Shown here: positions 18,116-37,183 of the stretch, piece by piece | How the letters are laid out: each line of letters begins with the position of its first letter | Position numbering within the stretch: the first letter of the stretch is position 1 | IMG/VR virus record: IMGVR_UViG_3300044629_000431 | Coordinates: 64,001-128,000 of that record | Source: a virus | Strand: one strand, 5' to 3' | Length of the DNA: 64,000 nt | Notes under the pieces: model-generated | Told to the model about the DNA's origin: nothing | The model's input: the letters and a program-made list of their open reading frames with translations, nothing else | Database searches by the model: none | Made by a program: the position numbers and the translations under genes

Positions 18116-19351
18116 TCAGCGTTTGACAACGCTGATGGCAGGAAGACCCTGCTGAAACACGGTGTCCACCACCGCTTGGACCTTCTTAGCGGTGCTGATG
18201 CCCACAGAAGAGTAGACAGGGATACAGACCAACCCAAAGGACTTGGTGTAGTCCTGAAGGGCACCAGGGGCGATCCTGCCGCTGCTGAGACCCTCTGCAT
18301 CGTCCTTGTGCAGGCGGATCACCCGTCCGATGGTCTGGGAGATGCCGATGTAGTCCATGGACCGCATAAACAGCACTGCCTCCAGACCAGACACGTTGAT
18401 GCCCTCGCTCAGAATGCTGTGGTGCAGAACCACAAACTTCTTAGAGTCATCCTTGCCCCAGGCACTCAGAGTGTCGAAGAACACCTCACGGTTGACCTTC
18501 TGACCGTCGATGATAGCACCAGTCTTGGACGTGATATACATCCAAGAGAAACCACGCTCCTCCAGTTGAGTGCAGAAGTCAGTCTGAGAAACCAGAGAAA
18601 CGATCTGCTTGGTTGCTTTAGAGCAGATCAGAACCTTGCCAACCTCTTGAGCATCAATAGTCTGAATGAGGTTCTCACAGTCAACGTCAGCGACGATCTG
18701 ACCCTTGCTGAGCATCTCAAACTGCTGCACCACAACCTTAGGAGGAACGATGAAACCACCGTCCACCAGTTCAGGAGCAGGAACATTGCAGATCACGTTG
18801 CCATAAACGGCAGCGTCATTCATACCAGGTTTGGAAATAGTAGCAGAATGCTTAGGAGTAGCAGTGAAGAAATAGCAGCGGTCAGCATTAGCAGAGAAGT
18901 GCTCCGTAGCAGGGAAAAAGTGACGCTGAACGCTGTTGTGTGCCTCATCAAAGTAAATGGTATCAACGTGAATATCTGCCTGCTGAAGACGCTGCAGGGA
19001 GTTATAGGTGGTAAAAATGAGTTTGTGACCCTTCGCTTGCTCATACCAGGCACGAATCACATTGGGGCGAGTGCTGCTGAAGTGGTGCGTCTCACCAGAA
19101 TGGACGTGCAGAACCTGAGCATTTGTGATAAACTCAAGGAACTCGCTGGACAACTGCTCTGCCAGGAGGATGCGCGGAGCACAGACTACAATAGTCTGAG
19201 GAGTATTTTTCAGAAACTCACGAATAGCATCAAAGATAGCGATGTTGGTCTTGCCGCCGCCAGTCGGGATAATCACCTGACCCTTGCGGTGTTGCAGCAG
19301 GGCATCCAGAGCACGTTGCTGGTGGGGACGGAGTTGAATCACTGACCTCAT
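18116..19351 (-). CDS. superfamily 2 DEAH helicase (type III Res-like)
   Basis: LRPHQ, PTGGGKT (Walker A), DEAH, TATP, LSEGIN, QTIGRVIR. Confidence 0.9.
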   Translation of the reverse strand: MRSVIQLRPHQQRALDALLQHRKGQVIIPTGGGKTNIAIFDAIREFLKNTPQTIVVCAPRILLAEQLSSEFLEFITNAQVLHVHSGETHHFSSTRPNVIRAWYEQAKGHKLIFTTYNSLQRLQQADIHVDTIYFDEAHNSVQRHFFPATEHFSANADRCYFFTATPKHSATISKPGMNDAAVYGNVICNVPAPELVDGGFIVPPKVVVQQFEMLSKGQIVADVDCENLIQTIDAQEVGKVLICSKATKQIVSLVSQTDFCTQLEERGFSWMYITSKTGAIIDGQKVNREVFFDTLSAWGKDDSKKFVVLHHSILSEGINVSGLEAVLFMRSMDYIGISQTIGRVIRLHKDDAEGLSSGRIAPGALQDYTKSFGLVCIPVYSSVGISTAKKVQAVVDTVFQQGLPAISVVKR

Positions 19352-19364
19352 TGCGTATAGGACT

Positions 19365-19422
19365 ATTATAGCACTAAAAAAGGGGGTCGGAACCCCCTTG
19401 TGCCAGTTGTAAAACTGTCTAT
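19365..19422 (-). promoter_or_regulatory. early-type promoter with GTGCCA motif (copy 8)
   Basis: GTGCCAGTT at 19400; TATAAT at 19365-19370. Confidence 0.65.
19376..19399 (-). terminator. intrinsic terminator after tail-fibre gene
   Basis: AAGGGGG-TTCCGA-CCCCCTTTTTT on the minus strand. Confidence 0.7.
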
Positions 19423-21896
19423 TAGAACAATGTGAAACTTGTAGAACCTACACCAGGAACAGTGAACACTAACTGATTGCCCACCGTTGTAATTTGAACA
19501 GCAGTTCCAATACCACTTAAGAAACCATTGGTTGCTGTTACTATACCAGCACTTACCGTAACACCAGTTCCAACTCTAAGAGATGATGTTGTTGTAACAC
19601 CAGATACATTAAGTTGATCCAACTCAGTGTGTCCCAATACATCAAGTCCACCATTTGCATCAATAAATCCTTCAATTATGGTGTCACCGGTATTGGCGAC
19701 AACAAAGAATTTATCACCACCTGAGGGATTTCTAACAGCAAAGTCGTCATCAACATCGACCGTACCATTAAATTCAGAATTACCATTAATAGTAAGGTTT
19801 CCAAATGTAGAAACACCAGATACATTCAATTGTTTAGTAAAGAATGTAGGACCAGTAACTGTTGTAATGCCACTGAAAGTAGAAATACCTCCGCCTGCGC
19901 CAGGGAAAACATTCAATGAGGTGCAAGTTACAATACCACCAATTACATTGGAAGCATCAGTTGCGAAACCAGTAAAGTTAGCATAAGTTGCAATACCAGA
20001 TCTTTCAGCATAAGAAATTGTTCCGCTTGCCGCCATTTGAACCCAAGCGGAACCAGTATAATACTCAGGAACTGCAGTGGTGGTATTAAATACGACTGCT
20101 CCTCTGATATTATCAGTCGAAGTATCTAAGTTATTTCTCTGAGTTGTATTCAGACGAGGAAGTATCATAAAGCGATACGCATCGCTGAAATATCCAACTC
20201 CTGCTTCAGAGAAATCGACAGCAGCCTTTGGTCGTGTGGTTCCAACACCAACAGATCTTATAAGAACTCTCTTGCCAATAGCATTAATATCAATTTGTGG
20301 ATATGATGCTGTACTACCAACACCAATAAATGATGAAGAAGCAACTAAACCTAAACCACCAACTAGATCTTGATTAGTACCCAGTTGAAGAGAATAGTTG
20401 GTAGTATCAGTTCCGATAGCTACATTTGACAAACTTGCAAGATTAGTTACATCAATATCATAAAATGTTGATACCCCAATAGTATTATTGAGATTTGCAC
20501 TAATGCCACCAAGAACATTTAAATTATTTGTGGTAAAGTTTCCACTAACACCTAAGTCTCCATATAAAGTTGAGTCTCCAACAACAAATAAGTCATCACC
20601 AATGTAAAGATCTTGAGTAATTGTTGAAGTTCCAACAACGTGCAACTCATGGTCTGGATTTGTTTTTGCAATACCCAGTCTACCACCATAAGTCAGAGTC
20701 ATTTTTGCACTCTGATCTTGACCATAAACCCAGTTGAAGTTACCGGTTCCAAGACCAGCAGCACCACGATGAATATAATAGTTTACGCTTCCTCTATCGT
20801 AATTGACAAGATCTAACGATGTTTGCCCACTAAAGGTATCTGCTAAGTTACCAAAACGAATCTCACCACCCTGTTGACCTCTAGTTAAAGTTCTAGCAAC
20901 ACCAACATAAGATTCTTGAGTGCTGGTTAACTGAACTCCACCAACACCATTCTTTACAACATGTATTTCTGCAGTTGGAGAATGAGTATTCAGACCAATG
21001 TTATTTTCAACATAGAGTCTATTTGAAACAGAAGCAATTCCTGTTGTTGAGTTATTTGATACAGTTATGTTTGATGCTGTTACAAAACCCACAATAATAT
21101 CAGGGGTTCCTGTTAATGAACGAGCAGTAGATGCTATTCCAGTTACGTTTCCAGTTACATCACCAGTTACATTACCAATTAAGTTTCCTACAAAACCACC
21201 ACTAGATGTCGTGACTCCAGTTACAACAAGATTATTAGTTCTTACAAATGGGGAAGTTAAAATGCCACTAATATTAATATTTGATGCAAGGCGAGCATTG
21301 TCTAATGTTCCTGCAGAAATATTAGATGCATTTAATGCTGTAACTCCAGCTCCAGAACCAACATAACTTTGAGCAGTAACAATACCTGTCGAGTAGATAT
21401 TACCAGTCGAGTCAATTCCAACACCTGTTGCACCAACATTTGCAAAGATTCTGCTTTGGTCAGAACCACCAACTTGGAAAGGATAGAATGGAGATACTGT
21501 GCTGACTCCAACAAATCCTTGTGCATAAATGCTCGTAAAACCTAGACCAATATCTACATCTAACCATTGAGATGTTGGTAGGTTAAGAAGTCTTCCACCA
21601 TCACCATAATAAGTTACGATTCCAGCGACACCAGTAACAATTCCAGACTGACTAACTGAAACTATACCTGCTCTGATACCACCACTAAACGTAGAAACAC
21701 CCGATGCTCTAATATTTGCAGCAAAAACTTCCGTAGCAGTGACTAGCCCGACTACCTTTGCAGTTCCTCTTACATCAAGAAGTTCGGTTGGAACTGATGT
21801 ACCGATTCCAACCAAACCATTAGGGTTTACGATTAAATTGTCATCATCTACCTGTACACCATTACGAAAGTTAAAAGTTTTTCTAATATTAGCCAT
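19422..21896 (-). CDS. tail fibre / virion structural protein
   Basis: 824 aa; repeated VGIGT, GIVTA and LNVSGVSTF fibre motifs; ATAAATA late promoter at ~21916. Confidence 0.8.
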   Translation of the reverse strand: MANIRKTFNFRNGVQVDDDNLIVNPNGLVGIGTSVPTELLDVRGTAKVVGLVTATEVFAANIRASGVSTFSGGIRAGIVSVSQSGIVTGVAGIVTYYGDGGRLLNLPTSQWLDVDIGLGFTSIYAQGFVGVSTVSPFYPFQVGGSDQSRIFANVGATGVGIDSTGNIYSTGIVTAQSYVGSGAGVTALNASNISAGTLDNARLASNINISGILTSPFVRTNNLVVTGVTTSSGGFVGNLIGNVTGDVTGNVTGIASTARSLTGTPDIIVGFVTASNITVSNNSTTGIASVSNRLYVENNIGLNTHSPTAEIHVVKNGVGGVQLTSTQESYVGVARTLTRGQQGGEIRFGNLADTFSGQTSLDLVNYDRGSVNYYIHRGAAGLGTGNFNWVYGQDQSAKMTLTYGGRLGIAKTNPDHELHVVGTSTITQDLYIGDDLFVVGDSTLYGDLGVSGNFTTNNLNVLGGISANLNNTIGVSTFYDIDVTNLASLSNVAIGTDTTNYSLQLGTNQDLVGGLGLVASSSFIGVGSTASYPQIDINAIGKRVLIRSVGVGTTRPKAAVDFSEAGVGYFSDAYRFMILPRLNTTQRNNLDTSTDNIRGAVVFNTTTAVPEYYTGSAWVQMAASGTISYAERSGIATYANFTGFATDASNVIGGIVTCTSLNVFPGAGGGISTFSGITTVTGPTFFTKQLNVSGVSTFGNLTINGNSEFNGTVDVDDDFAVRNPSGGDKFFVVANTGDTIIEGFIDANGGLDVLGHTELDQLNVSGVTTTSSLRVGTGVTVSAGIVTATNGFLSGIGTAVQITTVGNQLVFTVPGVGSTSFTLF

Positions 21897-21923: not shown

Positions 21924-23099
21924 CTATTTCTTAATTGCTTTAAAAATAATGCAGGGCGACGCTGCATCTTGTCTAGTAGATGCACCACTAACATATTCAT
22001 CGTTTACGTCTTCTTTCATTGGAAAAACATTGTAAAACAAGAAATCAATTAAATCACGATGTCTTCTACCAAGTGGTGTCAAAATATCATACATTTGCAC
22101 ATTATTTCCCATTTTTTCAATAACTTTTTCCCAGAAATTAATGGAGGTCCCATCTTTAAATCTCAAAGTCAGGTTTCCATTGTTACCCTTTTTATTGACA
22201 AAAAATTCATGCACTTCATTAATAAAAAATGTTTTTAAGTGAATTGTAGAATCCGTTTGTGGAATAATATGACCATCAGGAACTGAAAAATTATACTGTT
22301 CAAGTCTACGAATAAATGCTGGGACGTTCATTAACATTCCTAGACTTTGATCAGAGTATCCATATTCCCTGGATATTGGTGACATCACATTAAATGGGTT
22401 ACGTTGGTTTTTAAACCTATCCCAATGCCTTTGCTCCTCTTCAGTCCAATAGTTCACAGTATATTTTTTCTCACCAGTTCGTAAATCGTAAGTTTTTTCT
22501 GCTGTAGATTCAATCATATACTCGGTATATCTATCAACATCGGACATAATTTTACTTTCCTGAGATATGGTCATTACCTTTTCAAAATCAACTGTTAAAT
22601 CAAATTCAGATATTACGCCAGGCATTGCAGAACCTGGATGCTTGCTAAACAAAGTTCCACCTGGTTTTAATACCCTATAGCATTCTTTTATCATTTGCTC
22701 AACATCTTCAGCATAACCTATTGTTTCTAAAAACAATAACGTGTCAAAATAGTTGTCTTCAAATGGAAGTTTGTCCCAACTTGCTATTTTAAATCTTGAT
22801 TCATATCCTGGATTTCTTTCTTTAGCACATTTTATTTGCTCTTCAGAAATGTCAATACCATAATATTTGACAGATTTTTTCTTTTTAATAAGTCTTTTAA
22901 AAAAATATCCTCCACCACATCCACACTCCAGTACATATTGTCCCATTTTGGACATTTTAATAATATTATCTACATCTTGATCAATAAATGTACTAGGATC
23001 AGAGTCTAGATCAACTAAAAGTGCTCCATTGTAATAGTTACCTTCATCATTACTCAATAAAGGTGCAATAGCATTATAGTATTCAAGAGTATTGTCCAT
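21924..23099 (-). CDS. class I SAM-dependent methyltransferase
   Basis: VLECGCGGG, YYGIDIS, LPFEDNYFD, FLETIGY, RVLKPGG. Confidence 0.85.
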   Translation of the reverse strand: MDNTLEYYNAIAPLLSNDEGNYYNGALLVDLDSDPSTFIDQDVDNIIKMSKMGQYVLECGCGGGYFFKRLIKKKKSVKYYGIDISEEQIKCAKERNPGYESRFKIASWDKLPFEDNYFDTLLFLETIGYAEDVEQMIKECYRVLKPGGTLFSKHPGSAMPGVISEFDLTVDFEKVMTISQESKIMSDVDRYTEYMIESTAEKTYDLRTGEKKYTVNYWTEEEQRHWDRFKNQRNPFNVMSPISREYGYSDQSLGMLMNVPAFIRRLEQYNFSVPDGHIIPQTDSTIHLKTFFINEVHEFFVNKKGNNGNLTLRFKDGTSINFWEKVIEKMGNNVQMYDILTPLGRRHRDLIDFLFYNVFPMKEDVNDEYVSGASTRQDAASPCIIFKAIKK

Positions 23100-23113
23100 T
23101 TTTTTATTTTTAT

Positions 23114-23854
23114 TTATTGAATATATGGATTGGTGGAGTTATATGTTCTATAGAATTTGATAGTTGGTTTTTGATCTTTATAGAGCTTTACTTTGAAATG
23201 AAAATGGAACTTATTTGGAGTGTATCCATCAAAAATACGTTCATACTTATTAAAAATAGTTTTATTGATATTTGGAAAACACTCAAGCAATATATTTTTT
23301 GTATTTAAAAAAGTATCAACTGAATAGTTTGGTAGTAGTTCTACATTGATATTATCATGAATTACATTTCCATTTTTATCAAAGTCAAAAGCATATAAAA
23401 CATTATATGTGCCACCACCAAGAACTCTTGCTAGGTCTACAGCATCACTTTTCATCTTATGATCTATATTATTAAACTCACCAAGCAAAAACCCACATTT
23501 AAAATCTGTGTCTTTACCAATATTATCAATTAATTTGGTAAAATAACTGTATCTATATTTTGTATTAAGTCCAAATGACTTATTAATTAAATCATATTCT
23601 TTTTCGGTGACACCATTTACAGATAAATGAAAATATGGAGACTCAATAAACTTATTCTGTGGTGTTATTGCTTTGTGAAATGTTCTCAGACCTTGAACTT
23701 CATTTAGTTCATTTGTCAGAATATTGTAGATATAGTTGTAGTCATTTTTTATTTTCGACTTTTCTTTAAAAGAAACTTCACTATAGTCTAAAAAACAATA
23801 ATGATATGAAACATGGTCAGAGGTCAAGTCCCTCTCAAAAAGATAATAAGTCAT
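23114..23854 (-). CDS. hypothetical protein, paralog of 26772-27491 (possible ABBA prenyltransferase-like)
   Basis: Shared AFD/GFD ... ELxP ... HxKxK ... IKxYR motifs. Confidence 0.5.
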   Translation of the reverse strand: MTYYLFERDLTSDHVSYHYCFLDYSEVSFKEKSKIKNDYNYIYNILTNELNEVQGLRTFHKAITPQNKFIESPYFHLSVNGVTEKEYDLINKSFGLNTKYRYSYFTKLIDNIGKDTDFKCGFLLGEFNNIDHKMKSDAVDLARVLGGGTYNVLYAFDFDKNGNVIHDNINVELLPNYSVDTFLNTKNILLECFPNINKTIFNKYERIFDGYTPNKFHFHFKVKLYKDQKPTIKFYRTYNSTNPYIQ

Positions 23855-24540
23855 AATTGATTGTTATGAATACCAAGCCAGAATACAATTGTATATCTAT
23901 TTCCAGAAGTAATAGGAGTTACTCCATGATAGTACATCCAGTTACTGGGGAAAACAATAACATCACCAGTTTTAAAACCAAATGTTTTTCCTATTGATGG
24001 AAAATCTAAATATCCCCCCTCATAGTTCTCATTTAAGTAAACACATACTGTCAGTAACCTAGAGAAGTTTAGTGACTCTGCATAATGATCATGATGTATT
24101 CTAAAAAAGTCATCTTTAGAATAGTCTAAAATGTGGGAATCGCTGATATTTAATCTATCACCATAGGCATAATAAAATGGTCTAACATCTCTTACATATC
24201 TTCTACCAACTTCTGCAGATATGTCACGAATAATTTTATTTGAAAATGTTTTGAACTCATCATCAACAGCAAAAAGATTGACATATTCACCTGTCCTTAA
24301 CAGGTCTGTCATTGGACTATCAAACTCATTCTTGTGCTTCTCATTATGAATTTTTTGAGAAAATTCCTCACAAATTTCTTTTTTTACCAAATTTGTATAA
24401 ACTTTCACATAATCATCCATGTTTAAATTAAATTTGTTATCTTTAACTTCGGATAACATTTCAAGGTATTCCTTATTAAATCCATTCCTATACTCTTGAT
24501 TATTAAATCTAGAATATAAATTTGTAAAAGTATTATGCAT
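23851..24540 (-). CDS. prolyl-4-hydroxylase-like 2OG-Fe(II) oxygenase
   Basis: HHD ... YLNENYEGG ... HGVTPITSGNRY. Confidence 0.9.
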   Translation of the reverse strand: MHNTFTNLYSRFNNQEYRNGFNKEYLEMLSEVKDNKFNLNMDDYVKVYTNLVKKEICEEFSQKIHNEKHKNEFDSPMTDLLRTGEYVNLFAVDDEFKTFSNKIIRDISAEVGRRYVRDVRPFYYAYGDRLNISDSHILDYSKDDFFRIHHDHYAESLNFSRLLTVCVYLNENYEGGYLDFPSIGKTFGFKTGDVIVFPSNWMYYHGVTPITSGNRYTIVFWLGIHNNQL

Positions 24541-25039
24541 CTTCTACACAAATATCAATACTAATAAATTCGAAATCTTTATCTGAGTTATTTTTTGCAG
24601 AATGTTTTATATGTCTTACATCAAAGAAGTATAGTTCTCCTTTTTTCCAATTAATTTCTTCATCGCCATAGTAAAACATTGCCTCAGTATCCATTAAAGG
24701 AATGTGTGCTCTAAAGAATTCTTTATGCCAATAGCAAGTATCAACATGCTCTCCAACATGCTGACCTGATGGAACTGTTATTTTTGAGAATGCCAGGATA
24801 CGATCATCATTAGCAAACTTTTCAATTGTTTCTGTAGAATACTTATCTTTTGGAATGGTTGCTTCTTCTCTTGGAATCTTCTTGAATGCATAAAGAACGC
24901 ATCCACTGTCATCATCAATATTCCAAGAAATTTTCATATTTGTTTTTGGACTAAAGTATTCATCCAAAATCAACGGTTTTAACTCATTAATTTTATTATA
25001 AAAGTCAACATAATAAGGTCTAGAAAAATCAATAGTCAT
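24533..25039 (-). CDS. aspartyl/asparaginyl beta-hydroxylase-like 2OG-Fe(II) oxygenase
   Basis: EHVD ... RAHIPL ... WKKGELYFFD ... HSAKN. Confidence 0.8.
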   Translation of the reverse strand: MTIDFSRPYYVDFYNKINELKPLILDEYFSPKTNMKISWNIDDDSGCVLYAFKKIPREEATIPKDKYSTETIEKFANDDRILAFSKITVPSGQHVGEHVDTCYWHKEFFRAHIPLMDTEAMFYYGDEEINWKKGELYFFDVRHIKHSAKNNSDKDFEFISIDICVEDA

Positions 25040-25647
25040 AATTTCTCATAAGCTCCCATATCAATATTTAGAACCTTCAAGTAAAGGGGGTCATTTGTAA
25101 AGTGTGAACCTAGATATTCTCTATCATTCTCATAAAGAATGTCAAAACAAAGGAAACAAAGATCTACGTCTTTTGACTTGTTCGTTCCACTATGAGAGTC
25201 GTAAACAAAATCAAGTATAAAGGGTTTTCCTACTTCAACTTTAATAGTTCCAAAACTTTCAGCAGTAATATAACTTTCATCAGCGGTAATAGGAACTAAA
25301 ATTCTCCAAAGGTTTTTGCCATAATAAGGAGGGTCTACATGCTCCTTAATGTCAGAACTTGCTGCAAAAGTATTCAAACTCACAGTTGGAATATTCTCAT
25401 CTAGAATAATATCCTTAAGTTTATCACTATAAAAGTTTTTAAGTTGAAGTCCATCCGTTGGAGACTTGATAACTCTAAATCTCCAGTCTCCATATTCATA
25501 TTTTGATGGAACTTTATATTCAGGAACTTCTGTGAAGTCTTGTTTTAAAACATCTGGAGTTACATCAAGAATTTTTTGAAAGTAACTCTTTACATACTTA
25601 GACTCTAGATCTAAAAAGGGCTTATTCTGGGGAGTCGTCGATTTCAT
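25036..25647 (-). CDS. aspartyl/asparaginyl beta-hydroxylase-like 2OG-Fe(II) oxygenase
   Basis: EHVDPP ... WRILVPI ... HSGTN. Confidence 0.7.
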   Translation of the reverse strand: MKSTTPQNKPFLDLESKYVKSYFQKILDVTPDVLKQDFTEVPEYKVPSKYEYGDWRFRVIKSPTDGLQLKNFYSDKLKDIILDENIPTVSLNTFAASSDIKEHVDPPYYGKNLWRILVPITADESYITAESFGTIKVEVGKPFILDFVYDSHSGTNKSKDVDLCFLCFDILYENDREYLGSHFTNDPLYLKVLNIDMGAYEKL

Positions 25648-26779
25648 AACTTACATCTAGATTAACAACACGTGATTCTGAAGTATCTTCTGCTACAGCA
25701 TCACTTGAGAATGATGTTGAGTATGAAAGTGTAGTAGAAGAATCTGTAGTTGATGTCACACCAACACCATCATAAGATATTTTTTCTTCACAAGGAACTT
25801 GAACAAATTCAGCTTGTTCTGGGTGTTGTGAAATATAGTTTTCTCTATACTCAGAATATCTCTGCATGTATGGAGCATTTGGATGCGTAGGATCAATTTG
25901 AGACTTTTCAATACCTTCGTTATATGTCTTATTGATATGAGGAAGTTCGGAAATATGATTGATAGCATCGGCAACTTTTTTGAACACAAATATCATACAC
26001 TCATGATATCTGTTTGGGGCATAATTTTGAGTCTCATTCTTTCTAATATGTTCAATATAAGATGGATGTGCTTCACAAAATTCATCAGATGAACAGAAAG
26101 TTTCATTATAAGTCATTACATCATATTCTGGGACTTCAATTTTTTCAACTTCAAAACCATTCTCAAGAAAACTTTCTTCTATGAGACTTTTGTTTGGAAG
26201 CATACCAAGAGATGCCTCACTATATCCATATTCTTTTTCTATGTCAGCAAACTTTTCTTGATATTTTGAATCAAGTTCTTCATCATGAACTACTTTAATT
26301 GGGTTTTTAATAATTACTCTACCACCAATTTTAAGTCCTGTTGATATAGTCTTAATAAGAGTATCAAGATTTGTTGTGTAACCAATACTTTCAATAAAGT
26401 AAACCGCATCAAAATACGGTTCAGCCATTACAAGTTCATTCATATCTTTACAGAAAAAAGATGATGCATAACTTTCTGCAGATTTTGATGCGTTATCAAT
26501 TTGCTTTTCACAGCAATCTACACCAAGATATCTACAATTTTTGTAGTTTGGATGAGTTTTTAAGAACTTATGAAACTGACCATTACCGCAACCAACATCG
26601 GCAATGAATGAATCGTGATTAAGTTCCCCCAAGTCTGCTAAGTACTGATAGTTTTGTTCCCTAAGACCTAAAGATCCATACTTTTCACTTTTAATCAAAG
26701 CAACTTGATATCCCTGAGGATACTTTTCGTTGATTACATCAGCAAGAGAATCATAATAAGATACGGTTGTTTCATCCAT
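25622..26779 (-). CDS. class I SAM-dependent methyltransferase
   Basis: IADVGCGNG, YLGVD, YFDAVYFIESIGY; paralog of 21924-23099 (EYGYS-x2-SLGML in both). Confidence 0.85.
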   Translation of the reverse strand: MDETTVSYYDSLADVINEKYPQGYQVALIKSEKYGSLGLREQNYQYLADLGELNHDSFIADVGCGNGQFHKFLKTHPNYKNCRYLGVDCCEKQIDNASKSAESYASSFFCKDMNELVMAEPYFDAVYFIESIGYTTNLDTLIKTISTGLKIGGRVIIKNPIKVVHDEELDSKYQEKFADIEKEYGYSEASLGMLPNKSLIEESFLENGFEVEKIEVPEYDVMTYNETFCSSDEFCEAHPSYIEHIRKNETQNYAPNRYHECMIFVFKKVADAINHISELPHINKTYNEGIEKSQIDPTHPNAPYMQRYSEYRENYISQHPEQAEFVQVPCEEKISYDGVGVTSTTDSSTTLSYSTSFSSDAVAEDTSESRVVNLDVSYEIDDSPE

Positions 26780-27491
26780 AGTAAAATTCTGGAATGTTTA
26801 CGTTGATTGATCTGTAATACTTTATGTTTTTAATTTCCCCGTTTTCAATTTTAAACTTAACGTGGGAAAACTTTTTGAAGTTTAAAAAATATCTTTCAAA
26901 TGGATCTGTATTGATACCATAAATCTTCAAAATATTTATAAAGCCCTTTGAACCATCAATAGTATTTTGTGGATATAACTCTAAATGAACTGTGTCGTAA
27001 TTGAGTTTTCCTCCACATCCATCAAAACCCAAACAATAAAAAATTGGATTGAACTTAGATATAATTTCTCTGGTCATATCTAGAGTATTAGTTCCCATAT
27101 CAAATTCATCTAAATTTGCTTTGGGAAATATTTCTCGATGAGGAATATCATCTCCAATATCATCTAGATTAAAAGTAAAAGAGTTTTGATTTCTAATAGG
27201 GATAATTCCTAGTTTATTCACCTCATCGTATTTACTCTGGTCCTTCAGAGTAAAGTTTACAAAAGTTCCCCTGCGAGAAATATTCAAAAATAGAATATGA
27301 AAATTTATATTCTCAAACTTTTCTTTGATAGTTGCCTCTATTTTAAATAATTTTGAACTATTTTCACGTTCTGGTATTTGAGATAAACTCTTATAACCAT
27401 AATGATATGAAAAATATGGTTGAGAGTAAATCTCCCGTTCTATTCCAATACCAAAATCAGAATGTAACTGTACTACCTGCTGTTGTTCCAC
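26772..27491 (-). CDS. hypothetical protein, paralog of 23114-23854 (possible ABBA prenyltransferase-like)
   Basis: LGFD ... HLELYP ... FSHVKFK ... IKYYR. Confidence 0.5.
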   Translation of the reverse strand: MEQQQVVQLHSDFGIGIEREIYSQPYFSYHYGYKSLSQIPERENSSKLFKIEATIKEKFENINFHILFLNISRRGTFVNFTLKDQSKYDEVNKLGIIPIRNQNSFTFNLDDIGDDIPHREIFPKANLDEFDMGTNTLDMTREIISKFNPIFYCLGFDGCGGKLNYDTVHLELYPQNTIDGSKGFINILKIYGINTDPFERYFLNFKKFSHVKFKIENGEIKNIKYYRSINVNIPEFYYG

Positions 27492-28461
27492 TTGTCAATA
27501 CCACATAATAAGCACTACTTCTACGACGAATTGCATCTCCACCAGAACCTCCACTACCTCCACCACTCGCGCCCCATCCTCCACCTGGTGATCCAGAATT
27601 AGAGCAAATAGTTCCTTGAGGATATCCTCCACAACGTCCACCACCGCCGCCGCCAGAACCAGGAACGGTGCTTGTGTCCTCATCACCATCTCCACCAGAT
27701 CCACCACCACCTGCCGGGAAGTTTGATGGTGGTGCGCCGCTGCCCCCGCCGCCTGCACCACCACCTTTTCCACCACCTCCACCAGATCCACCAATAGAAG
27801 TATTACTTACGTTACAGCAATAACATTCATTAAATGATTGTGTTTTGCCGCCACTACCGCCTCCACCACCTCCACCACCAAGAATACGGTTATTATTTTT
27901 AAGATAGATATTTGAAGCAACAGAAAAAGCCGTTCCACCTGGAGATCCAGATCCTCCACCATCTCCACCCTTTCCACCTTTTCCATAAATTGCATAGTCA
28001 TTAGTCAAATAGCAAGTTGTATTTGATCTAGAACCTTGTGGAATTGTCAAACCATAGTTTGATGTTAGAGTTGCTCTACAATTACCAGTTGTTTCTGCAT
28101 CAAAAAATACCGTATTGTTGCTATTAGATTTTAATGCTTCATTTTCAATCGTATTAACATCAATTGAAGCATTATTTCCACTTAACTGGACTACCGCTTG
28201 TCTAGCATAATAGTATACTTTATTGTAAAAATTAGTAAGAGCAATAGTTGTCCCAGCTCCAGCAACAGGAACATTATCAAAATGAGATGCTTTTGTTGGA
28301 TGACTTGAATCAGTTCTTGCTTGATCAGTGCATTTATTTTTCTTCAAATATGTAGAACCATAATAAAACTCATTCATTGCAACCTGACCCTGTGGACCTA
28401 AGTTTGTATACTCTGTTCTTAGATCCGATAAAGCAATTTGTCCGCTTGATTGTAAGGTCAT
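27457..28461 (-). CDS. gp38-like glycine-rich tail-fibre tip adhesin
   Basis: IYGKGGKGG and NNNRILGGGGGGGG motifs as in T2-type gp38; glycine-rich blocks alternate with short variable loops; lies downstream of the S74-bearing long fibre. Confidence 0.75.
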   Translation of the reverse strand: MTLQSSGQIALSDLRTEYTNLGPQGQVAMNEFYYGSTYLKKNKCTDQARTDSSHPTKASHFDNVPVAGAGTTIALTNFYNKVYYYARQAVVQLSGNNASIDVNTIENEALKSNSNNTVFFDAETTGNCRATLTSNYGLTIPQGSRSNTTCYLTNDYAIYGKGGKGGDGGGSGSPGGTAFSVASNIYLKNNNRILGGGGGGGGSGGKTQSFNECYCCNVSNTSIGGSGGGGGKGGGAGGGGSGAPPSNFPAGGGGSGGDGDEDTSTVPGSGGGGGGRCGGYPQGTICSNSGSPGGGWGASGGGSGGSGGDAIRRRSSAYYVVLTSGTTAGSTVTF

Positions 28462-29111
28462 TTTTGTATTGAAAATGTATATGGTCCTGATTTGAATTTT
28501 GATGGAACAAAATTCATAGAGATAGAGACTCTTCCATTACCGATATTTATATCATACCCATGATCTAAATGAGATGACCAAAGAACCAAATCACCTTCTT
28601 CAATAAAGTCACAAACTATTTCTTTTTGATTGAATGCTGTTGTTTCCGCGATGTTCAAATCAAAAAATGGTTCTACGTGAAGATTAAGAAATGGATTCAA
28701 GAATATAAGTGTAGAATGAATAGATGGAATATAGTTTACATAATAAGTTGCAGATACAAATGAGTTTCCGTGACTATGAAATCTTTGAAACCCATTTTTA
28801 TAGCAAGTGTTTATCCAGCAGTCAGTAATAATCAAATCATCCTCAAGGTCATATCCCATCACCCCCCTCACAAATCCATATGAAGACTCAAGCAAAAACT
28901 CTTTAAAGTCTTCATCATTGATATAATCAAAGAAACCTTTTTCTAGTTCGGAAGAATTAAAGAAATGTTTAAGTTCTGGAGAAGTAATACCATCAACTTC
29001 TAGTTCTTTATTTTCTTTAATAAAGTCTAGAATTTTATCTTTAAACTCATTACGCTTTGGATATTGTACCTTTGCAATAGGAACTGGAAATAAAGGATAT
29101 ACGCCTAGCAT
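28458..29111 (-). CDS. putative 2OG-Fe(II) oxygenase (TIGR02466-like)
   Basis: LFPVPI ... WIN ... HSHGNSFVSATYY ... LDH ... RVSISMN. Confidence 0.85.
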   Translation of the reverse strand: MLGVYPLFPVPIAKVQYPKRNEFKDKILDFIKENKELEVDGITSPELKHFFNSSELEKGFFDYINDEDFKEFLLESSYGFVRGVMGYDLEDDLIITDCWINTCYKNGFQRFHSHGNSFVSATYYVNYIPSIHSTLIFLNPFLNLHVEPFFDLNIAETTAFNQKEIVCDFIEEGDLVLWSSHLDHGYDINIGNGRVSISMNFVPSKFKSGPYTFSIQK

Positions 29112-29116
29112 ACTTT

Positions 29117-29162
29117 AAAAAGATAATACCAGTACTATAAACTAGCACTGGTATTTTGTCAA
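29117..29162 (-). promoter_or_regulatory. sigma70-type promoter overlapping a terminator-like hairpin
   Basis: TTGACA (29157-29162)-N17-TATAGT (29134-29139); inverted repeat AATACCAGT/ACTGGTATT followed by a T-run. Confidence 0.6.
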
Positions 29163-32100
29163 CCTATTTTCTTTTCCAGAGCATCTACCTTAGCAGAGAG
29201 TTCCTTGATAGCTTCGATAAGCAGAGGAACAATCTTCTCATACTGAACAGTGATGTAGTCTCCACTTACAGGTGCTGGTTTGACTGCCTCAGGAAGAACT
29301 GCCTGAACTTGTTGTGCAGAAACACCAACGTGAGTTTCTTCAGTATTAAAACCAAGTGAACCAGCGGTTTCATTGAATGTATAAGTGAAACCACTTAACT
29401 GAAGAACTTTATCGAGTGCATTCTCAAGAGGTTGAATGTTTGTCTTGAGTCTTTCGTCAGAAACGAAAGCAATGACATCACCAGTTGCACTGAACTCACC
29501 AGTGACTCTAGCACCATCAGAACGGGTATTGATTCTAACTGTGTTGTCATGATAGAGGTTGATTGCACCATCAGCGACGGCATCAATCATGCTTTCGCCA
29601 GTATACTTCTGAATGTATACTCCACCATTTCCACGAATGAATAGTGAACCAGTTCCTCTATCATCAATATAACTGTTCGAACCATCATGGAATAGATCAA
29701 GGTCATCACTATCACCAAGATACAGGTGATCGTTATCACCAAATCTTATGGTTCCATTAGCAGTAATATTTCCAGTAATCGTTGCAACTCCAGCAACGTT
29801 GAGGTTTCCACAGATATTCAGATTCTTAGCAATACCTGCACCACCAGCAACAACTAAGGCACCAGTCGTGCAACTGGTAGACTCGGTGGTTCCAGCAATA
29901 GTTTGAACGCCACCAATGTTCAGGTTCTTCTCAACACCTAGACCACCTTCAAGAACCAGAGAACCAGTATCCTTGCTTGTTGATTGTGTTGTTCCATTTA
30001 CTGTGACATCACCACCAACATTCAGGTTCTTTTCAATACCAACACCACCATCAACAATCAGAGCTCCAGTGTCTTTGTTTGTTGATTGAGTTGTATTTGT
30101 AATTTCTACAGTATTGTTAACTTTCAGAGCACCATTGATTTGAACATCATCATTCATCTTCAACTCTTGGTTGAAGGTGACAGGACCATCAAACTGTGAA
30201 AGAATCTGACCAGAGTTTCCACCTTCAACAAGAATTCTTTCCTTGACAATAACTTCATCAAATACAACAGAAAGACGTGAAGGATCTTGTCCAGTTATGG
30301 TTGGAACTGGAATATCAAAAGTAATTTGCTCACCAGACTGTGCAGAATACTTGGTATTTCCAATAAAGAAGTCGCCATCGCTGTTCATACCAGTGTAAAT
30401 AACAGAACCGCAAGAACTTTCTTGAGACTGAGCAAGGAAGTCTTCTCTTTCAGTCAGAGTTCTGTTCTGAACCTGTGGTAGACCAGTTGAGTAGTTACCT
30501 GGTCCATATCCCATATATTCAAAAGTATGACCAGATGCACGAACAATCGATGGTCTACGAAGTTCAATAGGTACGGGTTTGATCTTGCGAATCATAGACC
30601 CTGAAGTATGGTTCTCTTTCAGAGTACCCATCGCTCCACGAATGACCTGGATTTCATCGTTTCCAGAACCAGACAGCGTGCTGCTGGTGATTCTCATAAT
30701 CTCATTATTGATTTGAATATAAGAACCAAGTGGGAATCTTCTTGTGGTTCCAATACCAGCATTTGGTACGCTTACCTTGAACTGAGTATCATTTGTAATA
30801 GTTTGTCCAAGAGTCAGAACTTCATTCTGATAGAGAGAAACACCTCTAGTTCCAAGATTTTCACCAAGTGAATCTGATGTTGCTTCGTTTGCAGAAAGTG
30901 CGTGCTTTAAGAGTTTTACTGAAGCAGGAATACTCTTTCTCGTTTTGGATGTGAATGATGTTGGTGAAATAAGTTCATTAACAACAAAGTCTCCAAGATT
31001 ATTATGAGAAGAGTCAAGAACTCTAAACTTATTACCTGCTACAAGACCGTGAGGAGTTCCACAAACAAAAGTCGAAATACCCGTTGCTGAATCGTAAGAT
31101 GGAGCAGAGCTAACATTGATTGAAGGGGCAATGTTAACGAAGTACTGACCTACAACAATACTTGGATCTCCAGAAGTTTGACCAACGGCAATTTGATTCT
31201 TAGCAGGAATATCAAGAACTCTATAGTATCCATCTGTGACTGTACCAAGTCCAGTAAACTGAACTGAGTTTCCAATAGATGTTGAAATACCAGAAGTTGC
31301 AATGGTAATAGCAGCACTTGGAGAACCACCAATTTGGTTGCTATCAAGATATAGTGTTTCACCAGTGGTGTATCCGGAACCACCAGTAATAATATCTAAG
31401 GAAGTAACTGAACCACCAGCAGATACAACTACCTTTGCAGTTGCACCATCCCAGTTTGTAAGAGTATTTTCATTATAAAGTTTGACGTTATAGTAGGTTC
31501 CTGGATTATGACCAGTTCCAGCAGTCAATGCATTGTAAGTTACAACACCATTCAGTTGATGCTCTCTGTTAAAGGTAACAGTGGTAATACCAGAAGAGGA
31601 GGTTGTGATGCCAGTTACAATTGGACTTAAACCAAAGTAATGGAAGAACTTATCAACTGTTTCTCTAGTGATACTCTTTCTCAGATCGTTAGTTACGGTC
31701 TTACCAAGAGGATCTCTGTAGGCAAAAGTGACCGATGCCGCAGGGTTCTCATTTACATTATCCTTATCCAACTGAGGATAAAGATCGACAACACTCTGAG
31801 AATACTTAAGGTTGGTAAACTCAGTTTGAATTGCATTAGAAGAGTTTAACAGATAAACGTGATATACACCATCTTGTGTATTGTAGATGTATGGTGTGAT
31901 AACCTCACTTCTGTAAACAAAGAAGTTTCCTTTCAGGTCGTTTCTTTCAAAGCGAGGAAGTGAAACCGTTCTGTTATTTGTATTATTAGTAAATGCACCT
32001 GGAGTATGAACGGTTCCGAAGATGTCTGTTGCACTGTATCTGAATGACTTATCATTAACAATTTCAGTAATTAGGAATGTACCATTGTATCCAATGTTAA

Positions 32101-34774
32101 TGGTTCCAGAAGTATTCGTAGTGCTGGTAACATTCTTAATGATAACTTGATCACCCGCTTTAAGATTGTGTGGGAGATCAGAAGTAACAGTTACAATACT
32201 TGTTACAGCATTGAACGTACAAGTGCTAATGAATCTTGGATTACGCTCAAACAGATAGTCAGCTGCGGTAATACTTGAGAGTGAGAAGTCTGCATCACTT
32301 CTTGCACCTGTTGTGCTTGATTCTTGAATGATGAATCCTTCATTAGGATCTCTACCATTTACAAGTTCTTTTGGAACAACAATACGAACTTTGTAAAGTT
32401 TTTCATCCAGACTTCTATTATCTTCAAAGCGTTTGAAGTAAGAAACTGCTGTTCTTTCTGTCAGTCCCGCTATGCCAAGTGTATTGATAGTAGTGTAAAT
32501 ATCATTATTCGTATTTGCATGAACATACCAACCAGAGTTTACCGAGTCCCATTGAATTGGTGAACCAATTTCACTAGCAGACTTATCAGATACTCTACTT
32601 ACAACTTTGAGTTGCACACCACCATAAATGGTAATTGGTTGTGGAGTTGCTGCTTCTGCATTTGTTTTGGAAGAAGCAATTTTAATTTGAGTTGACGAAT
32701 GACGAATTGCATAATAGATAACGTTTTCTTCCAAGTTTTCTGGAAGATCACCAGCATCACTAATGACTCTAATTTTTTCACCAGTTTGAATAGTATGACT
32801 TCCTAGAGTTAGAATATTAGAACCAGATGATGTTGCACTGTATACTTTTTCAGATGACCAAGTTCCAAGAGCAATAGTTGTTCCCGAACCAATGATATTA
32901 TCAAGCATTAAAATGCTTGCACTCTTTGTTCCTGATGGAGTTTCTAAGTAGAGAGTATCATTAACTCTTGCACCAACACGATATCCTTGTGTGATAACTG
33001 GTGGTTCAATGTCTGGGTTATTGAAACCATACAGATAAAGATGACTTGAGATACCAACTTGCTTAACTTTGTTTACGTCAAAAGAAATCCAGTCAATATT
33101 TTGTTCTTCATTAACAACTGCTCTTGGCGTAACAATCGATGTAATGAATGCTTTATTGTCTTTATCAAAGGCTTCTTTTTTGAAACCGTCTGCAGATAGT
33201 GAGAACTGACCAAAGTTAGAGTTTGAGTTGGTGATAGAGGCATCACCACCAGACTCTACAGCAAAGTGCTTGTTGAAACCGATTGCGAATACAGAAACAA
33301 CCTGAATAAATGAATCATTTGTTGTTTTGATGTGAACTGGTTGCCAACCGTGTCTGTAAATTGCACCAGAATCAAGGTGATAAACTGTTGCAATATTTGT
33401 TGAAGATGAACCAGCAGAAAGTGCTGCTCCAGTTACTTTAGTATAAGAAATTGAGTCATATACTCTATTTGACTCATTATATTTTACGAATGCACGGTCG
33501 TCTTTTTGCAGAGACACAGCGGTGAACTGTGCAACAACCATCGAACGGAAACCTGATGCTTTGCTACCATCAGCGTGCATACCTTGCATACCCCACACGG
33601 AGCGTAGCGAGATATTGAAGATATATGGAGATGCACCTGAAACCGTATCTGTTTCAATGGTTACTGTTGCTGAAGAACCACTCAGTCCAGCAGCAGGACC
33701 TGCAGGTAGATTATCTCTTACGAAAGGAAGAACATAAGTAAACTGAGTTGCACTTGTAACTACCTGAACTTTTGTAGAGATATTATAGTCATCTACGTTG
33801 ACTCCACGAATTTTAATTGGAGTTCCAGCAGTCAGTCCATGAGCGACTGTTGTTGTGACTGTTACAATTGAACCAGGAGTTGCACCATCACCAGAAATGA
33901 TGGAGCTCATATTAATTGGGTCTGATGCAAAAGCACCAACGATTTCCCACTCAGGACGTTGCTTGGCGAAACCTAAAGTTTGATCTGGATATTTTTGATC
34001 AATATCTCTACCAGATGCCAGATTAAAGGCATTCGATAGTTTACTATAATACATATCAAGATCGGTCAATCCATATCCAGTAGGAAGATTGACACCATCA
34101 CAATATTCAAAACAGGTTAGTTTATGGTGAGAGAATGTTGGTTTTGCCTGATTATTTGAAGAAAAATCGGCAGCATCAGTATAGACTAGTGTGTTTTCAT
34201 CACCATCAAAGATAGAAAACTGCCAGAAATAGCAAGCGCCAGTAATTCTAAAGATGGCAGAGTTTGCTAGAAGATCGTCTGTTGGGTTAGGAACATATCT
34301 TGGACGAATCTTGGTCTTTCTTAAGTCTAGACCAACGATCGAAGTTCCACGAGGTACAACAACACCACCGTAGACACTATTAAACTTATAAAGAATATTT
34401 TCCGACTGAGTTAAATCAAAATTACTGGTTAAGGTTAAACTTAACTCATTTTGAGCGACTGATTCTGCACCAGAAGGAGATACTGCAGTTGCAACTCCAC
34501 CAACACTCTTAATTGCATAACCAGGTCTGTTATCAATAAGGTGCTCACCTGGAAAGAGCAAAATTGTGGTTTTCTCAACAATATCGTTATTATCCCCTCT
34601 TAAATACGAAAATCTAGCAGATTCAAGCAGTGCTCTCTGAATCGTTTTAAAAGGTTTTGTTAAAGAGTTACCCTGATTTTCAATACTATCCGTTGCATCA
34701 AGGTCATTAGGGTTTACATAAAGAATGCGACCTTCAGTATTCCTAATAAAATTTTCTAGCTTATTCAGTGGCAT
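29159..34774 (-). CDS. long tail fibre protein with C-terminal peptidase S74 intramolecular chaperone
   Basis: 1871 aa; TGALVVAGGxGIxKNL repeats; SDERLKTNI ... GVSAQQV ... YEKIVPLLIEAIKEL. Confidence 0.9.
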   Translation of the reverse strand: MPLNKLENFIRNTEGRILYVNPNDLDATDSIENQGNSLTKPFKTIQRALLESARFSYLRGDNNDIVEKTTILLFPGEHLIDNRPGYAIKSVGGVATAVSPSGAESVAQNELSLTLTSNFDLTQSENILYKFNSVYGGVVVPRGTSIVGLDLRKTKIRPRYVPNPTDDLLANSAIFRITGACYFWQFSIFDGDENTLVYTDAADFSSNNQAKPTFSHHKLTCFEYCDGVNLPTGYGLTDLDMYYSKLSNAFNLASGRDIDQKYPDQTLGFAKQRPEWEIVGAFASDPINMSSIISGDGATPGSIVTVTTTVAHGLTAGTPIKIRGVNVDDYNISTKVQVVTSATQFTYVLPFVRDNLPAGPAAGLSGSSATVTIETDTVSGASPYIFNISLRSVWGMQGMHADGSKASGFRSMVVAQFTAVSLQKDDRAFVKYNESNRVYDSISYTKVTGAALSAGSSSTNIATVYHLDSGAIYRHGWQPVHIKTTNDSFIQVVSVFAIGFNKHFAVESGGDASITNSNSNFGQFSLSADGFKKEAFDKDNKAFITSIVTPRAVVNEEQNIDWISFDVNKVKQVGISSHLYLYGFNNPDIEPPVITQGYRVGARVNDTLYLETPSGTKSASILMLDNIIGSGTTIALGTWSSEKVYSATSSGSNILTLGSHTIQTGEKIRVISDAGDLPENLEENVIYYAIRHSSTQIKIASSKTNAEAATPQPITIYGGVQLKVVSRVSDKSASEIGSPIQWDSVNSGWYVHANTNNDIYTTINTLGIAGLTERTAVSYFKRFEDNRSLDEKLYKVRIVVPKELVNGRDPNEGFIIQESSTTGARSDADFSLSSITAADYLFERNPRFISTCTFNAVTSIVTVTSDLPHNLKAGDQVIIKNVTSTTNTSGTINIGYNGTFLITEIVNDKSFRYSATDIFGTVHTPGAFTNNTNNRTVSLPRFERNDLKGNFFVYRSEVITPYIYNTQDGVYHVYLLNSSNAIQTEFTNLKYSQSVVDLYPQLDKDNVNENPAASVTFAYRDPLGKTVTNDLRKSITRETVDKFFHYFGLSPIVTGITTSSSGITTVTFNREHQLNGVVTYNALTAGTGHNPGTYYNVKLYNENTLTNWDGATAKVVVSAGGSVTSLDIITGGSGYTTGETLYLDSNQIGGSPSAAITIATSGISTSIGNSVQFTGLGTVTDGYYRVLDIPAKNQIAVGQTSGDPSIVVGQYFVNIAPSINVSSAPSYDSATGISTFVCGTPHGLVAGNKFRVLDSSHNNLGDFVVNELISPTSFTSKTRKSIPASVKLLKHALSANEATSDSLGENLGTRGVSLYQNEVLTLGQTITNDTQFKVSVPNAGIGTTRRFPLGSYIQINNEIMRITSSTLSGSGNDEIQVIRGAMGTLKENHTSGSMIRKIKPVPIELRRPSIVRASGHTFEYMGYGPGNYSTGLPQVQNRTLTEREDFLAQSQESSCGSVIYTGMNSDGDFFIGNTKYSAQSGEQITFDIPVPTITGQDPSRLSVVFDEVIVKERILVEGGNSGQILSQFDGPVTFNQELKMNDDVQINGALKVNNTVEITNTTQSTNKDTGALIVDGGVGIEKNLNVGGDVTVNGTTQSTSKDTGSLVLEGGLGVEKNLNIGGVQTIAGTTESTSCTTGALVVAGGAGIAKNLNICGNLNVAGVATITGNITANGTIRFGDNDHLYLGDSDDLDLFHDGSNSYIDDRGTGSLFIRGNGGVYIQKYTGESMIDAVADGAINLYHDNTVRINTRSDGARVTGEFSATGDVIAFVSDERLKTNIQPLENALDKVLQLSGFTYTFNETAGSLGFNTEETHVGVSAQQVQAVLPEAVKPAPVSGDYITVQYEKIVPLLIEAIKELSAKVDALEKKIG

Positions 34775-36500: not shown

Positions 36501-37183
36501 GCGGTTGGTGAAGTATCTTTAATAGCCTGTATTGCTATGCTGATTTGAGTATTCTTATCGGTCAAAAGTCTAGTGGTTTTATTTTGTCCGTATCTTGCAA
36601 TTTCATATTCAGATCGTTCACCTTTTACAGCATTTGTTTTTGTAACTAGATTTGTTACTTGAGATTGCAATGCTGATATTTGACTTTGTAATGTTGTTAT
36701 AGAAGAAGCGTGTGAAACACAGACAGAAGATGTACAAGGTGTTCTAAAACAACTTCCTATAGTACCAAATAGGCTTCCAATGCCAGTTTGAGATGTATCA
36801 GACTGTGTATAAACGACAAAAGAACCTATACCAACATTTGATGCTGTTAAAGTATTGTTTGTATTTCCATAAGGATCATTGCCATCATAGGTTGAAGTGG
36901 AATAGTTTGGAGTTTTTGCAACGATACTATCTGGGAAAATATTTGTTACTCCTACCGTAGTTCCACATCCAACTGCAAATGCATTTGTTGATAAGACAAC
37001 AATTTGTGACTTTAGACTATTAATTTGTGAAACCAAAGACACAATATCACTATCCAACTTTACACAAGTGGGACTGAACATCTCAATATCTGCCTGAGTC
37101 TTCGGCGTTTCTTGTGCCACATAACCAAGAGCATTTTCATTATTTTTAATTTTATTTTGAAGGTTATCAATTAACTGACTCAT
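36497..37183 (-). CDS. coiled-coil virion-associated protein
   Basis: Heptad repeats; last gene of the baseplate operon. Confidence 0.6.
   Translation of the reverse strand: MSQLIDNLQNKIKNNENALGYVAQETPKTQADIEMFSPTCVKLDSDIVSLVSQINSLKSQIVVLSTNAFAVGCGTTVGVTNIFPDSIVAKTPNYSTSTYDGNDPYGNTNNTLTASNVGIGSFVVYTQSDTSQTGIGSLFGTIGSCFRTPCTSSVCVSHASSITTLQSQISALQSQVTNLVTKTNAVKGERSEYEIARYGQNKTTRLLTDKNTQISIAIQAIKDTSPTA

Follow-up and report, generated by a model that had tools for sequence, protein, structure and literature searches.

A conserved cassette of candidate tailoring enzymes packed around a gp38-type adhesin in the structural operon of freshwater and estuarine T4-like phages

The window analyzed here is a stretch of 64,000 nucleotides (nt) of viral DNA, bases 64001-128000 of the 146-kb contig IMGVR_UViG_3300044629_000431, which is estimated to be 69% complete. 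On its minus strand, to which all gene coordinates below refer unless stated otherwise, lies a cassette of 7.2 kb (21924-29111) composed of eight genes of enzyme classes and one gene for a gp38-type adhesin, g2, whose product we name gp38L. The enzyme set consists of two proteins of the prenyltransferase-barrel (PT-barrel) type, two methyltransferases and four iron oxygenases, and g2 is the sole non-enzyme gene inside the block. Upstream of the cassette, a long tail fibre of 1871 residues is encoded (29159-34774), which carries a C-terminal intramolecular chaperone of the Peptidase_S74 (S74) type at residues 1772-1832 (Pfam E 3.4e-19). The module is closed by a gene for a tail protein of 824 residues (19422-21896; phrog_3269, E 5.6e-91). 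In the direction of transcription, the order is fibre, g1 (Oxy_5), g2 (adhesin), g3 (X1), g4 (MT1), g5 and g6 (cupins A and B), g7 (prolyl-4-hydroxylase-like, P4H-like), g8 (X2), g9 (MT2), and tail protein, where X1 and X2 denote the barrel proteins, MT1 and MT2 the methyltransferases, and g3/g8, g4/g9 and g5/g6 are pairs of paralogues.

An initial annotation, made from the DNA letters alone, had proposed these gene coordinates, their order and a mostly overlapping layout, and a check of the open reading frames (ORFs) confirmed all ten of the cassette region, tightly packed on one strand. From g1 through g8, neighbouring genes overlap by 4, 35, 8, 26, 4, 8 and 4 nt in order; the sole gaps are 47 nt between fibre and g1, 14 nt between g8 and g9, and 27 nt between g9 and the tail protein. 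Overlaps and gaps of this size leave no room for a separate precursor ORF, and gp38L is the only plausible substrate encoded within the block.

The tail protein reveals 36-39% identity to proteins of the cyanophages P-SSM2, P-SSM5 and S-SRM01 (36% to the tail fibre-like protein of P-SSM2), and 120 cyanophage records match it. The phage is thus a distant relative of the T4-like cyanomyoviruses. At least 15 metagenome studies of lake water and fresh water contain DNA nearly identical to the window.

The adhesin gp38L (27457-28461) has 334 residues, arranged as an N-terminal attachment domain and a polyglycine sandwich with four loops; residues 156-334 contain 37% glycine. Its AlphaFold2 (AF2) model, computed from 18 homologues, has a predicted local distance difference test (pLDDT) value of 83.5. 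When this model was compared with the PDB by Foldseek, it matched only the gp38 adhesins of PP01 and S16 (E 2.4e-8 and 1.2e-6) and nothing else at E ≤ 0.001. Structural alignment by VIA to S16 gp38 (6f45_D) gave a Z of 18.9 and a root-mean-square deviation of 3.8, with 226 of 248 residues aligned, both domains included, and model residues 7-332 covered. Judged by this model, gp38L is truly homologous in structure to the gp38 adhesins of S16 and PP01, and the label of a gp38-like adhesin, which the gene had been given before, is borne out by the fold. Like gp38 of S16, PP01 and T2 (PDB 6f45, 9v85; PF05268), it has a two-domain fold with loops on a polyglycine-II sandwich and is encoded just downstream of a long fibre gene. 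Unlike gp38 of S16 and T2, it remains below the Pfam threshold, its partner fibre is S74-chaperoned, and its gene is embedded among eight enzyme genes. The gp38L of the window does not match PF05268 even at E ≤ 10, and for its relatives P0026 and P0030 the scores (21.4 and 20.0 bits) lie under the cutoff of 25 bits. A distant gp38-like protein also occurs in the tail module of a siphovirus, where no enzymes are found. As a side observation, metagenome contigs often break or join oddly within the glycine-rich part of the adhesin gene (27636-27877), and one DNA sequencing run shows a depth spike there; because such breaks, joins and spikes coincide in a repeat-like stretch, assemblies of this region are likely unreliable.

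All four loop sequences quoted in the initial annotation are exactly present in g2. Their presumed hypervariability, however, applies to one half of them: loops 3 and 4 are variable, with a mean column identity of 0.33 and 0.34 as compared to 0.60 for the whole of gp38L, whereas the E-C-Y-C-C core of loop 1 (ECYCC) reaches 0.89-1.0 and the N247-F248 pair of loop 2 reaches 1.0. This is a difference to T2-type gp38, since two of the four gp38L loops are conserved and rich in cysteine. Two further candidate sites were tried and rejected. Tryptophan W296 does not qualify as a clade-specific prenylation site, as the GGGW motif is also present in the distant gp38-like proteins of the enzyme-less siphovirus, and the X-Pro-Gly motifs do not qualify as conserved targets of the P4H-like enzyme, as 0 such prolines are conserved.

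The two barrel proteins X1 (g3, 26772-27491, 239 residues, GTG start) and X2 (g8, 23114-23854, 246 residues) share 26% identity (E 2e-8). Formerly listed as two unknowns, they are indeed paralogous and can now be assigned a fold by modelling of X1. The AF2 model of X1 (pLDDT 90.1) is composed of five beta-beta-alpha repeats, in keeping with the ten-stranded antiparallel barrel of five alpha-beta-beta-alpha units that defines ABBA proteins. Foldseek returned 90 matches at E < 1e-3, and among the approximately 40 listed, all are ABBA prenyltransferases. The same holds true for the 50 best entries aligned by VIA (Z 10-11.7, 180-228 residues aligned). Identity to the solved prenyltransferases is 4-13%, and no family is assigned by sequence. 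On the strength of the model, X1 has the ABBA (PT-barrel) prenyltransferase fold. Among the members of this fold class are the peptide prenyltransferases of cyanobactin pathways (PagF, PirF, LimF, KgpF, PatF, and DciF), and the matches of X1 include KgpF, DciF, PatF, LimF and PagF. A fold class with peptide prenyltransferases among its members fits the mass shifts of +68 or +82 on loop peptides that had been proposed as a signature of modification.

Eleven residues are invariant across the X1 and X2 orthologues (E18, S28, H30, F105, E171, L188, H210, K212, K224, Y226, and R227). Eight of them, all charged or polar (E18, H30, E171, H210, K212, K224, Y226, R227), fall on predicted barrel strands, and these shared residues look like an active or ligand site. 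The X1 family is tiny, with only 8 representatives among 1.8 billion proteins (the contexts of these were not looked up), and a feature search of a protein atlas with X1 yielded unnamed clusters only. For X2, 19 homologues were found, and the context of one of them, P0052, was examined; all 4 contigs shown for it place it in this same cassette. Every X1 or X2 copy with an examined locus belongs to this cassette. PT-barrel-like models were also found in BFVD for uncharacterised proteins of the marine cyanophages ACG-2014e, S-RIM44, S-CAM3 and S-CAM1, and the ESM Atlas holds similar barrels fused to Cupin_8/JmjC hydroxylase domains (in giant viruses), Trp halogenase, and ThcOx/nitroreductase.

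Each barrel protein is accompanied by a class I methyltransferase dependent on S-adenosylmethionine (SAM). X1 directly precedes MT1 in all loci with X1, X2 always adjoins MT2 in either order, and the adjacency is kept in both gene orders of the cassette that are described below. MT1 (g4, 25622-26779, 385 residues) and MT2 (g9, 21924-23099, 391 residues) are paralogues (E 3e-17) and match Methyltransf_11 at E 1.1e-12 and 1e-22, respectively. Among solved structures, MT2 is closest to the lanthipeptide methyltransferase LahSB (E 2.3e-12), which scores only slightly better than generic methyltransferases.

The four remaining enzymes belong to Fe(II)/2-oxoglutarate (2OG) oxygenase families. g1 (28458-29111, 217 residues), whose stop overlaps the adhesin start by 4 nt, is a member of 2OG-FeII_Oxy_5 (PF13759, E 4.3e-13, 49.9 bits vs. 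a cutoff of 27) and of phrog_81 (E 2.6e-33); the closest structures solved so far, 3bvc and 2rg4, are of uncharacterised proteins. It had been described as TIGR02466-like, a likeness that is supported by the PF13759 score but not by TIGR02466 itself, for which 41.5 bits remain below the cutoff of 62.5. g7 (23851-24540, 229 residues) is a P4H-like oxygenase (PF13640, 2OG-FeII_Oxy_3, E 5.2e-14, 53.4 bits vs. 27), with the prolyl 4-hydroxylase of Bacillus anthracis as the nearest solved structure (3itq/5hv0, E 5.6e-7). Cupin B (g6, 24533-25039, 168 residues) is assigned to the Asp/Asn beta-hydroxylase family (Asp_Arg_Hydrox, PF05118, 30.2 bits vs. a cutoff of 22.6). Cupin A (g5, 25036-25647, 203 residues; phrog_25655) has no Pfam match of its own and is regarded as AspH-like through its paralogy to g6 only (E 1e-8). 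The metal and 2OG ligands are invariant across orthologues, namely H149-x-D151, H205 and R215 in g7 and H112, H114, N116, H184 and R194 in g1, and H103-x-D105, H152 and R115 are invariant across both groups of cupins. Judged by sequence, all four oxygenases retain their iron-binding residues. The tailoring-enzyme classes of the initial annotation are thereby confirmed: Pfam assignments, folds and the solved P4H nearest to g7 place the genes in families that contain peptide-tailoring members.

The initial annotation had likened the cassette to a gene cluster for peptides that are ribosomally synthesized and then post-translationally modified (RiPPs). This comparison is apt in so far as enzyme classes known to modify peptides are clustered, but the gene spacing offers no place for a short precursor gene with leader and core, and scans of all ten genes against Pfam, NCBIfam and PHROG revealed no recognition element, no leader protease and no exporter. 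Among RiPP systems, the cyanobactin pathways come closest. X1 shares the ABBA/PT-barrel fold with the cyanobactin F-family (Z 10.0-10.9 to those chains), whose members act on ribosomal peptides without a leader sequence (PMC10496146). AgeMTPT of a cyanobactin pathway is a fused prenyl- and methyltransferase acting on peptides (PMC10496146), and likewise each phage barrel is paired with a SAM methyltransferase, here encoded by separate neighbouring genes. Unlike the F-family proteins, X1 has 239 residues instead of 280-300, shows 9-13% identity to them and lacks a Pfam match. The phage block also differs from cyanobactin clusters in that it contains no precursor peptide, protease or heterocyclase and sits in a phage structural operon, and the presumed substrate is a folded virion protein of 334 residues. 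In the literature searched, a pair of barrel protein and methyltransferase beside a gp38-type adhesin was not found.

A second comparison concerns the cyanophages. As in Syn9, S-ShM2 and Sf-FS3, several unrelated Fe(II)/2OG oxygenases are clustered near the fibre genes of a T4-like phage, and g1 is 33-34% identical to oxygenases of Syn9-type, S-ShM2 and Sf-FS3 cyanophages. Unlike the Syn9-type neighbourhoods, this cassette is devoid of halogenases and adds two barrels, two methyltransferases and a gp38-type adhesin. The tandem dioxygenase/halogenase arrays of Syn9 (gp38-gp54 type) were interpreted as secondary-metabolite genes by Iyer et al. (2010; PMC2938197). In the same study, bacterial operons that combine hydroxylases with tail-collar or glycine-rich proteins were described, and the latter were proposed as substrates (PMC2938197). 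The cassette resembles these operons in the placement of hydroxylases beside a glycine-rich, tail-like protein taken as substrate. The bacterial operons, themselves predictions, contain beta-hydroxylase or PhyH dioxygenases and sulfotransferases, and no proteins of prenyltransferase fold. In S-ShM2 (L014, 8328-11004) and Sf-FS3 (L015, 2486-4854), two or three 2OG oxygenase genes lie just after the fibre genes, interleaved with genes for small proteins of unknown role, one of which is annotated as a 'minor coat protein' and weakly matches DUF6445. A protein of Sf-FS3 encoded after two oxygenases past the S74 fibre (P0032, 345 residues) was considered as a homologue of the barrel proteins and rejected (hhalign probability 0.2).

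To study the distribution of the cassette, contigs encoding homologues of gp38L or X2 were gathered one at a time (loci designated L002, L003, etc.) and their proteins were clustered. A locus search with the gp38L alignment among viral and metagenome contigs gave 0 confirmed relatives. Megablast and tblastn against 50,697 phage records found no match for the cassette DNA, gp38L or X1, although masking of low complexity may hide the glycine-rich part. The gathered contigs reveal that at least 10 metagenomic lineages share one orthologous enzyme set, at gp38L identities of 43-95%. An S74 fibre gene lies upstream of the cassette in every locus examined, and the tail protein gene follows in all loci long enough to reach there. 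Accordingly, the view of the cassette as a conserved unit beside an S74 fibre is upheld in many lineages; the module is a conserved structural-operon unit of T4-like phages that form a clade from fresh and estuarine waters and are distantly related to the cyanomyoviruses.

Two gene orders can be distinguished. Type A (window, L006, L022) reads Oxy_5, gp38L, X1, MT1, cupin A, cupin B, P4H, X2, MT2, and type B (L002-5, L007, L010, L012) reads Oxy_5, gp38L, X1, MT1, cupin A, P4H, a second Oxy_5, MT2, X2, cupin B. The adhesin gene is located after the S74 fibre wherever the contig includes the upstream fibre gene; in the window and most other loci one oxygenase gene lies between them, and in L016 and L021 gp38L follows the fibre directly with a 4-nt overlap. 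In L021, gp38L and X1 thus come without Oxy_5. In L019, Oxy_5 is followed by a gp38L variant of 476 residues (L019:1200-2630) and no X1 comes after it. This variant lacks the loop-1 cysteines and carries a C-terminal extension of about 140 residues rich in cysteine, tyrosine and glycine.

The two halves of the cassette have different histories. Fibre C-terminus, Oxy_5, gp38L, X1, MT1 and the N-terminus of the tail protein diverge together (pairwise identities correlate with those of gp38L at r 0.75-0.95), which could be explained by simple linkage. For the distal genes g5-g9, r is 0.05-0.35. Hence, the earlier suggestion that substrate and enzymes are exchanged together holds for g1, g3 and g4 but not for g5-g9, which have a history of their own. 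The distal half (21924-25647) has a GC content of 0.30-0.32 compared to approximately 0.38 and reveals 90-97% identity to L006 and 28-51% to type-B loci, whereas the proximal half (25622-29111) reveals 69-95% to both. This split points to a recombination joint near the g4/g5 boundary, and low GC content and independent divergence characterize the distal block as a swappable sub-cassette.

The conserved core of loop 1 follows the presence of X1. ECYCC is kept in 10 of 10 lineages with X1, including L022 with a gp38L identity of 43%, and is altered in both lineages without X1, L016 (44% identity) and L019 (38%), where RQCWFC and NEGYGA stand in its place. Comparison of the enzyme set with the adhesin loop residues across related phages, a check put forward along with the initial annotation, gave this one co-variation and no other.

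As to expression, a conserved intergenic element (29112-29165) precedes g1, in which TTGACA-17-TATAGT boxes overlap a hairpin of 13 bp with a T-run (fold energy -18.1 kcal/mol, z -4.45). The sigma-70-like boxes are kept in eight loci; L002 is devoid of the hairpin, and in L020 this position is taken by a hairpin whose sequence differs (z -6.68). A terminator-like GC-rich hairpin with a T-run follows the tail protein gene (19380-19399), and the block lies in one transcription unit bounded by structural genes and this one terminator. Matches to the T4 late promoter TATAAATA are uninformative, as 4 were found in the window and 3.8 are expected. Two metatranscriptome runs contain contigs that map to parts of the cassette and extend across both the fibre-g1 junction and that between g1 and gp38L, which is weak evidence because DNA carry-over is possible; the depth of these contigs is unfit to rank gene expression, and parts uncovered in the RNA runs carry no meaning.

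In the surroundings of the module, a second S74-chaperone protein of 230 residues is encoded at 37183-37875 on the minus strand, a few genes upstream of the long fibre. A gene for a ResIII/DEAD helicase of 411 residues is located at 18116-19351, where an ORF on the opposite strand is open at nearly equal length; the bin of 18-20 kb that contains it has a GC content of 0.47, well above its surroundings.

We consider modification of the phage's own adhesin by the cassette enzymes to be the best single explanation of these findings, with a probability of roughly 0.4. The long fibre would mature by its own S74 chaperone and would then most likely be capped by gp38L, as gp37 is capped by gp38 in phage S16. 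The eight enzymes encoded around gp38L would most likely have the adhesin as their target, either ahead of assembly or in the course of it. X1 and X2, each with its neighbouring SAM methyltransferase, may alkylate (prenylate) and methylate gp38L, and the four Fe(II)/2OG oxygenases may hydroxylate it. As candidate sites, the conserved, clade-specific residues in loop 1 (N-E-C-Y-C-C-N-x-S/T-N) and in loop 2 (N-F) are the most promising. Modification of the variable loops 3 and 4, which would carry receptor specificity, is less likely. Gene context and folds suggest a capping adhesin that serves as substrate, barrels that transfer prenyl groups, and modified residues in its conserved loops. A more specific version is tentative at best: the phage might lipidate or otherwise decorate its receptor-binding protein, with conserved Cys, Tyr and Asn loops being prenylated, methylated and hydroxylated, such that a partly hydrophobic fibre tip takes part in host recognition and a RiPP-like pathway operates on a folded virion protein.

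A number of observations weigh against self-modification of the adhesin, which is suggested by gene context and folds rather than by observed chemistry. Proline-containing loops had been put forward as P4H targets, an idea that is weakened by the lack of conservation of their prolines in spite of a conserved P4H-like gene. In structure, X1 is matched best by free-tryptophan indole prenyltransferases (e.g., IptA, 6-/5-DMATS and CymD), with the peptide prenyltransferases within 1-2 Z units, and none of the Pfam prenyltransferase models (e.g., PTase_Orf2, Trp_DMAT) matches any of 17 X1/X2 members at E ≤ 10. MT1 and MT2 look like generic small-molecule class I enzymes of the UbiE, BioC and CMAS types. 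The distal genes diverge independently of the gp38L alleles, and L016 has an S74 fibre, gp38L and a tail protein with no enzymes between them. The co-variation of ECYCC with X1 rests on two X1-less lineages, both of them divergent. In S-ShM2 and Sf-FS3, both of them marine isolates, S74 fibres are followed by 2OG oxygenases in the absence of gp38L and X1, and thus the position may simply be an insertion hot spot. Finally, the conserved sigma-70-like promoter before g1 raises the possibility that expression is separate from that of the late fibre genes.

Much of this would also be expected under the main rival reading, in which the cassette is an auxiliary island, for a secondary metabolite or directed at the host, that occupies an insertion hot spot in the fibre region, with gp38L as a mere neighbour. 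The barrels would then attach prenyl groups to a small molecule such as a free aromatic amino acid, or the enzymes would modify a component of the host envelope, and methyltransferases and oxygenases would tailor the product. The AspH family also holds lipid A hydroxylases, which suits an envelope target. In addition to the free-tryptophan matches of X1, the generic appearance of the methyltransferases, the marine oxygenases without gp38L, the promoter and the lineage without the block, the mobility and low GC content of the distal genes and the reading of the Syn9 arrays by Iyer et al. speak for such an island. However, scans with Pfam and NCBIfam found neither a scaffold-forming enzyme (nonribosomal peptide synthetase, polyketide synthase, or terpene synthase) nor a transporter in the block. 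Moreover, g1 is wedged between fibre and adhesin and overlaps into the adhesin gene, the block shares one transcription unit and one terminator with structural genes at both ends, the examined copies of the rare X1 and X2 are all confined to this cassette, and ECYCC tracks X1. We regard the island, in either form, as possible but doubtful.

A target other than gp38L within the virion, either the distal part of the 1871-residue fibre or the 824-residue tail protein, with gp38L as an unmodified cap, appears rather unlikely. In marine isolates, genes of P4H-like and other 2OG oxygenases come immediately after those of S74 fibres and no gp38-like gene is present, which points to the fibre as the common partner; fibre C-terminus and tail protein N-terminus co-diverge with the proximal genes, and the lack of conserved gp38L prolines fits as well. 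On the other hand, the X1 gene overlaps that of the adhesin by 35 nt, and the cassette-specific conserved motif found so far, in a screen that left aside fibre and tail protein, belongs to gp38L. That X1 and X2 are not transferases at all, but ligand- or peptide-binding partners that recruit the methyltransferase substrate, or assembly chaperones of the polyglycine adhesin, is improbable: although similar barrels are fused to other tailoring enzymes in the ESM Atlas, barrel and methyltransferase genes adjoin in both gene orders, no sequence match links X1 and X2 to prenyltransferase families, and X1 is short compared to the 280-444 residues of its listed structural matches, the eleven shared invariant residues with their eight charged or polar side chains on the barrel strands look like an active or ligand site, and the 50 best solved entries aligned by VIA are all active prenyltransferases except PatF, which is not known to be active.

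Even if the cassette served small-molecule or host-directed chemistry, it would hold a tiny new PT-barrel family paired with methyltransferases in phages, which is of enzymological interest. The cassette is compact and present in many lake metagenomes, and S-ShM2 and Sf-FS3 could offer a culturable system for the fibre-linked oxygenases. Phage receptor-binding proteins are usually assumed to be limited to the twenty standard amino acids, and host range is read from their sequence. If gp38L is modified by the enzymes encoded around it, the binding chemistry of an adhesin could no longer be predicted from its sequence alone, folded structural proteins would be a new kind of substrate for prenyltransferase-fold enzymes, and the oxygenase arrays near cyanophage fibre genes, for which an explanation has long been lacking, would become testable for their function.

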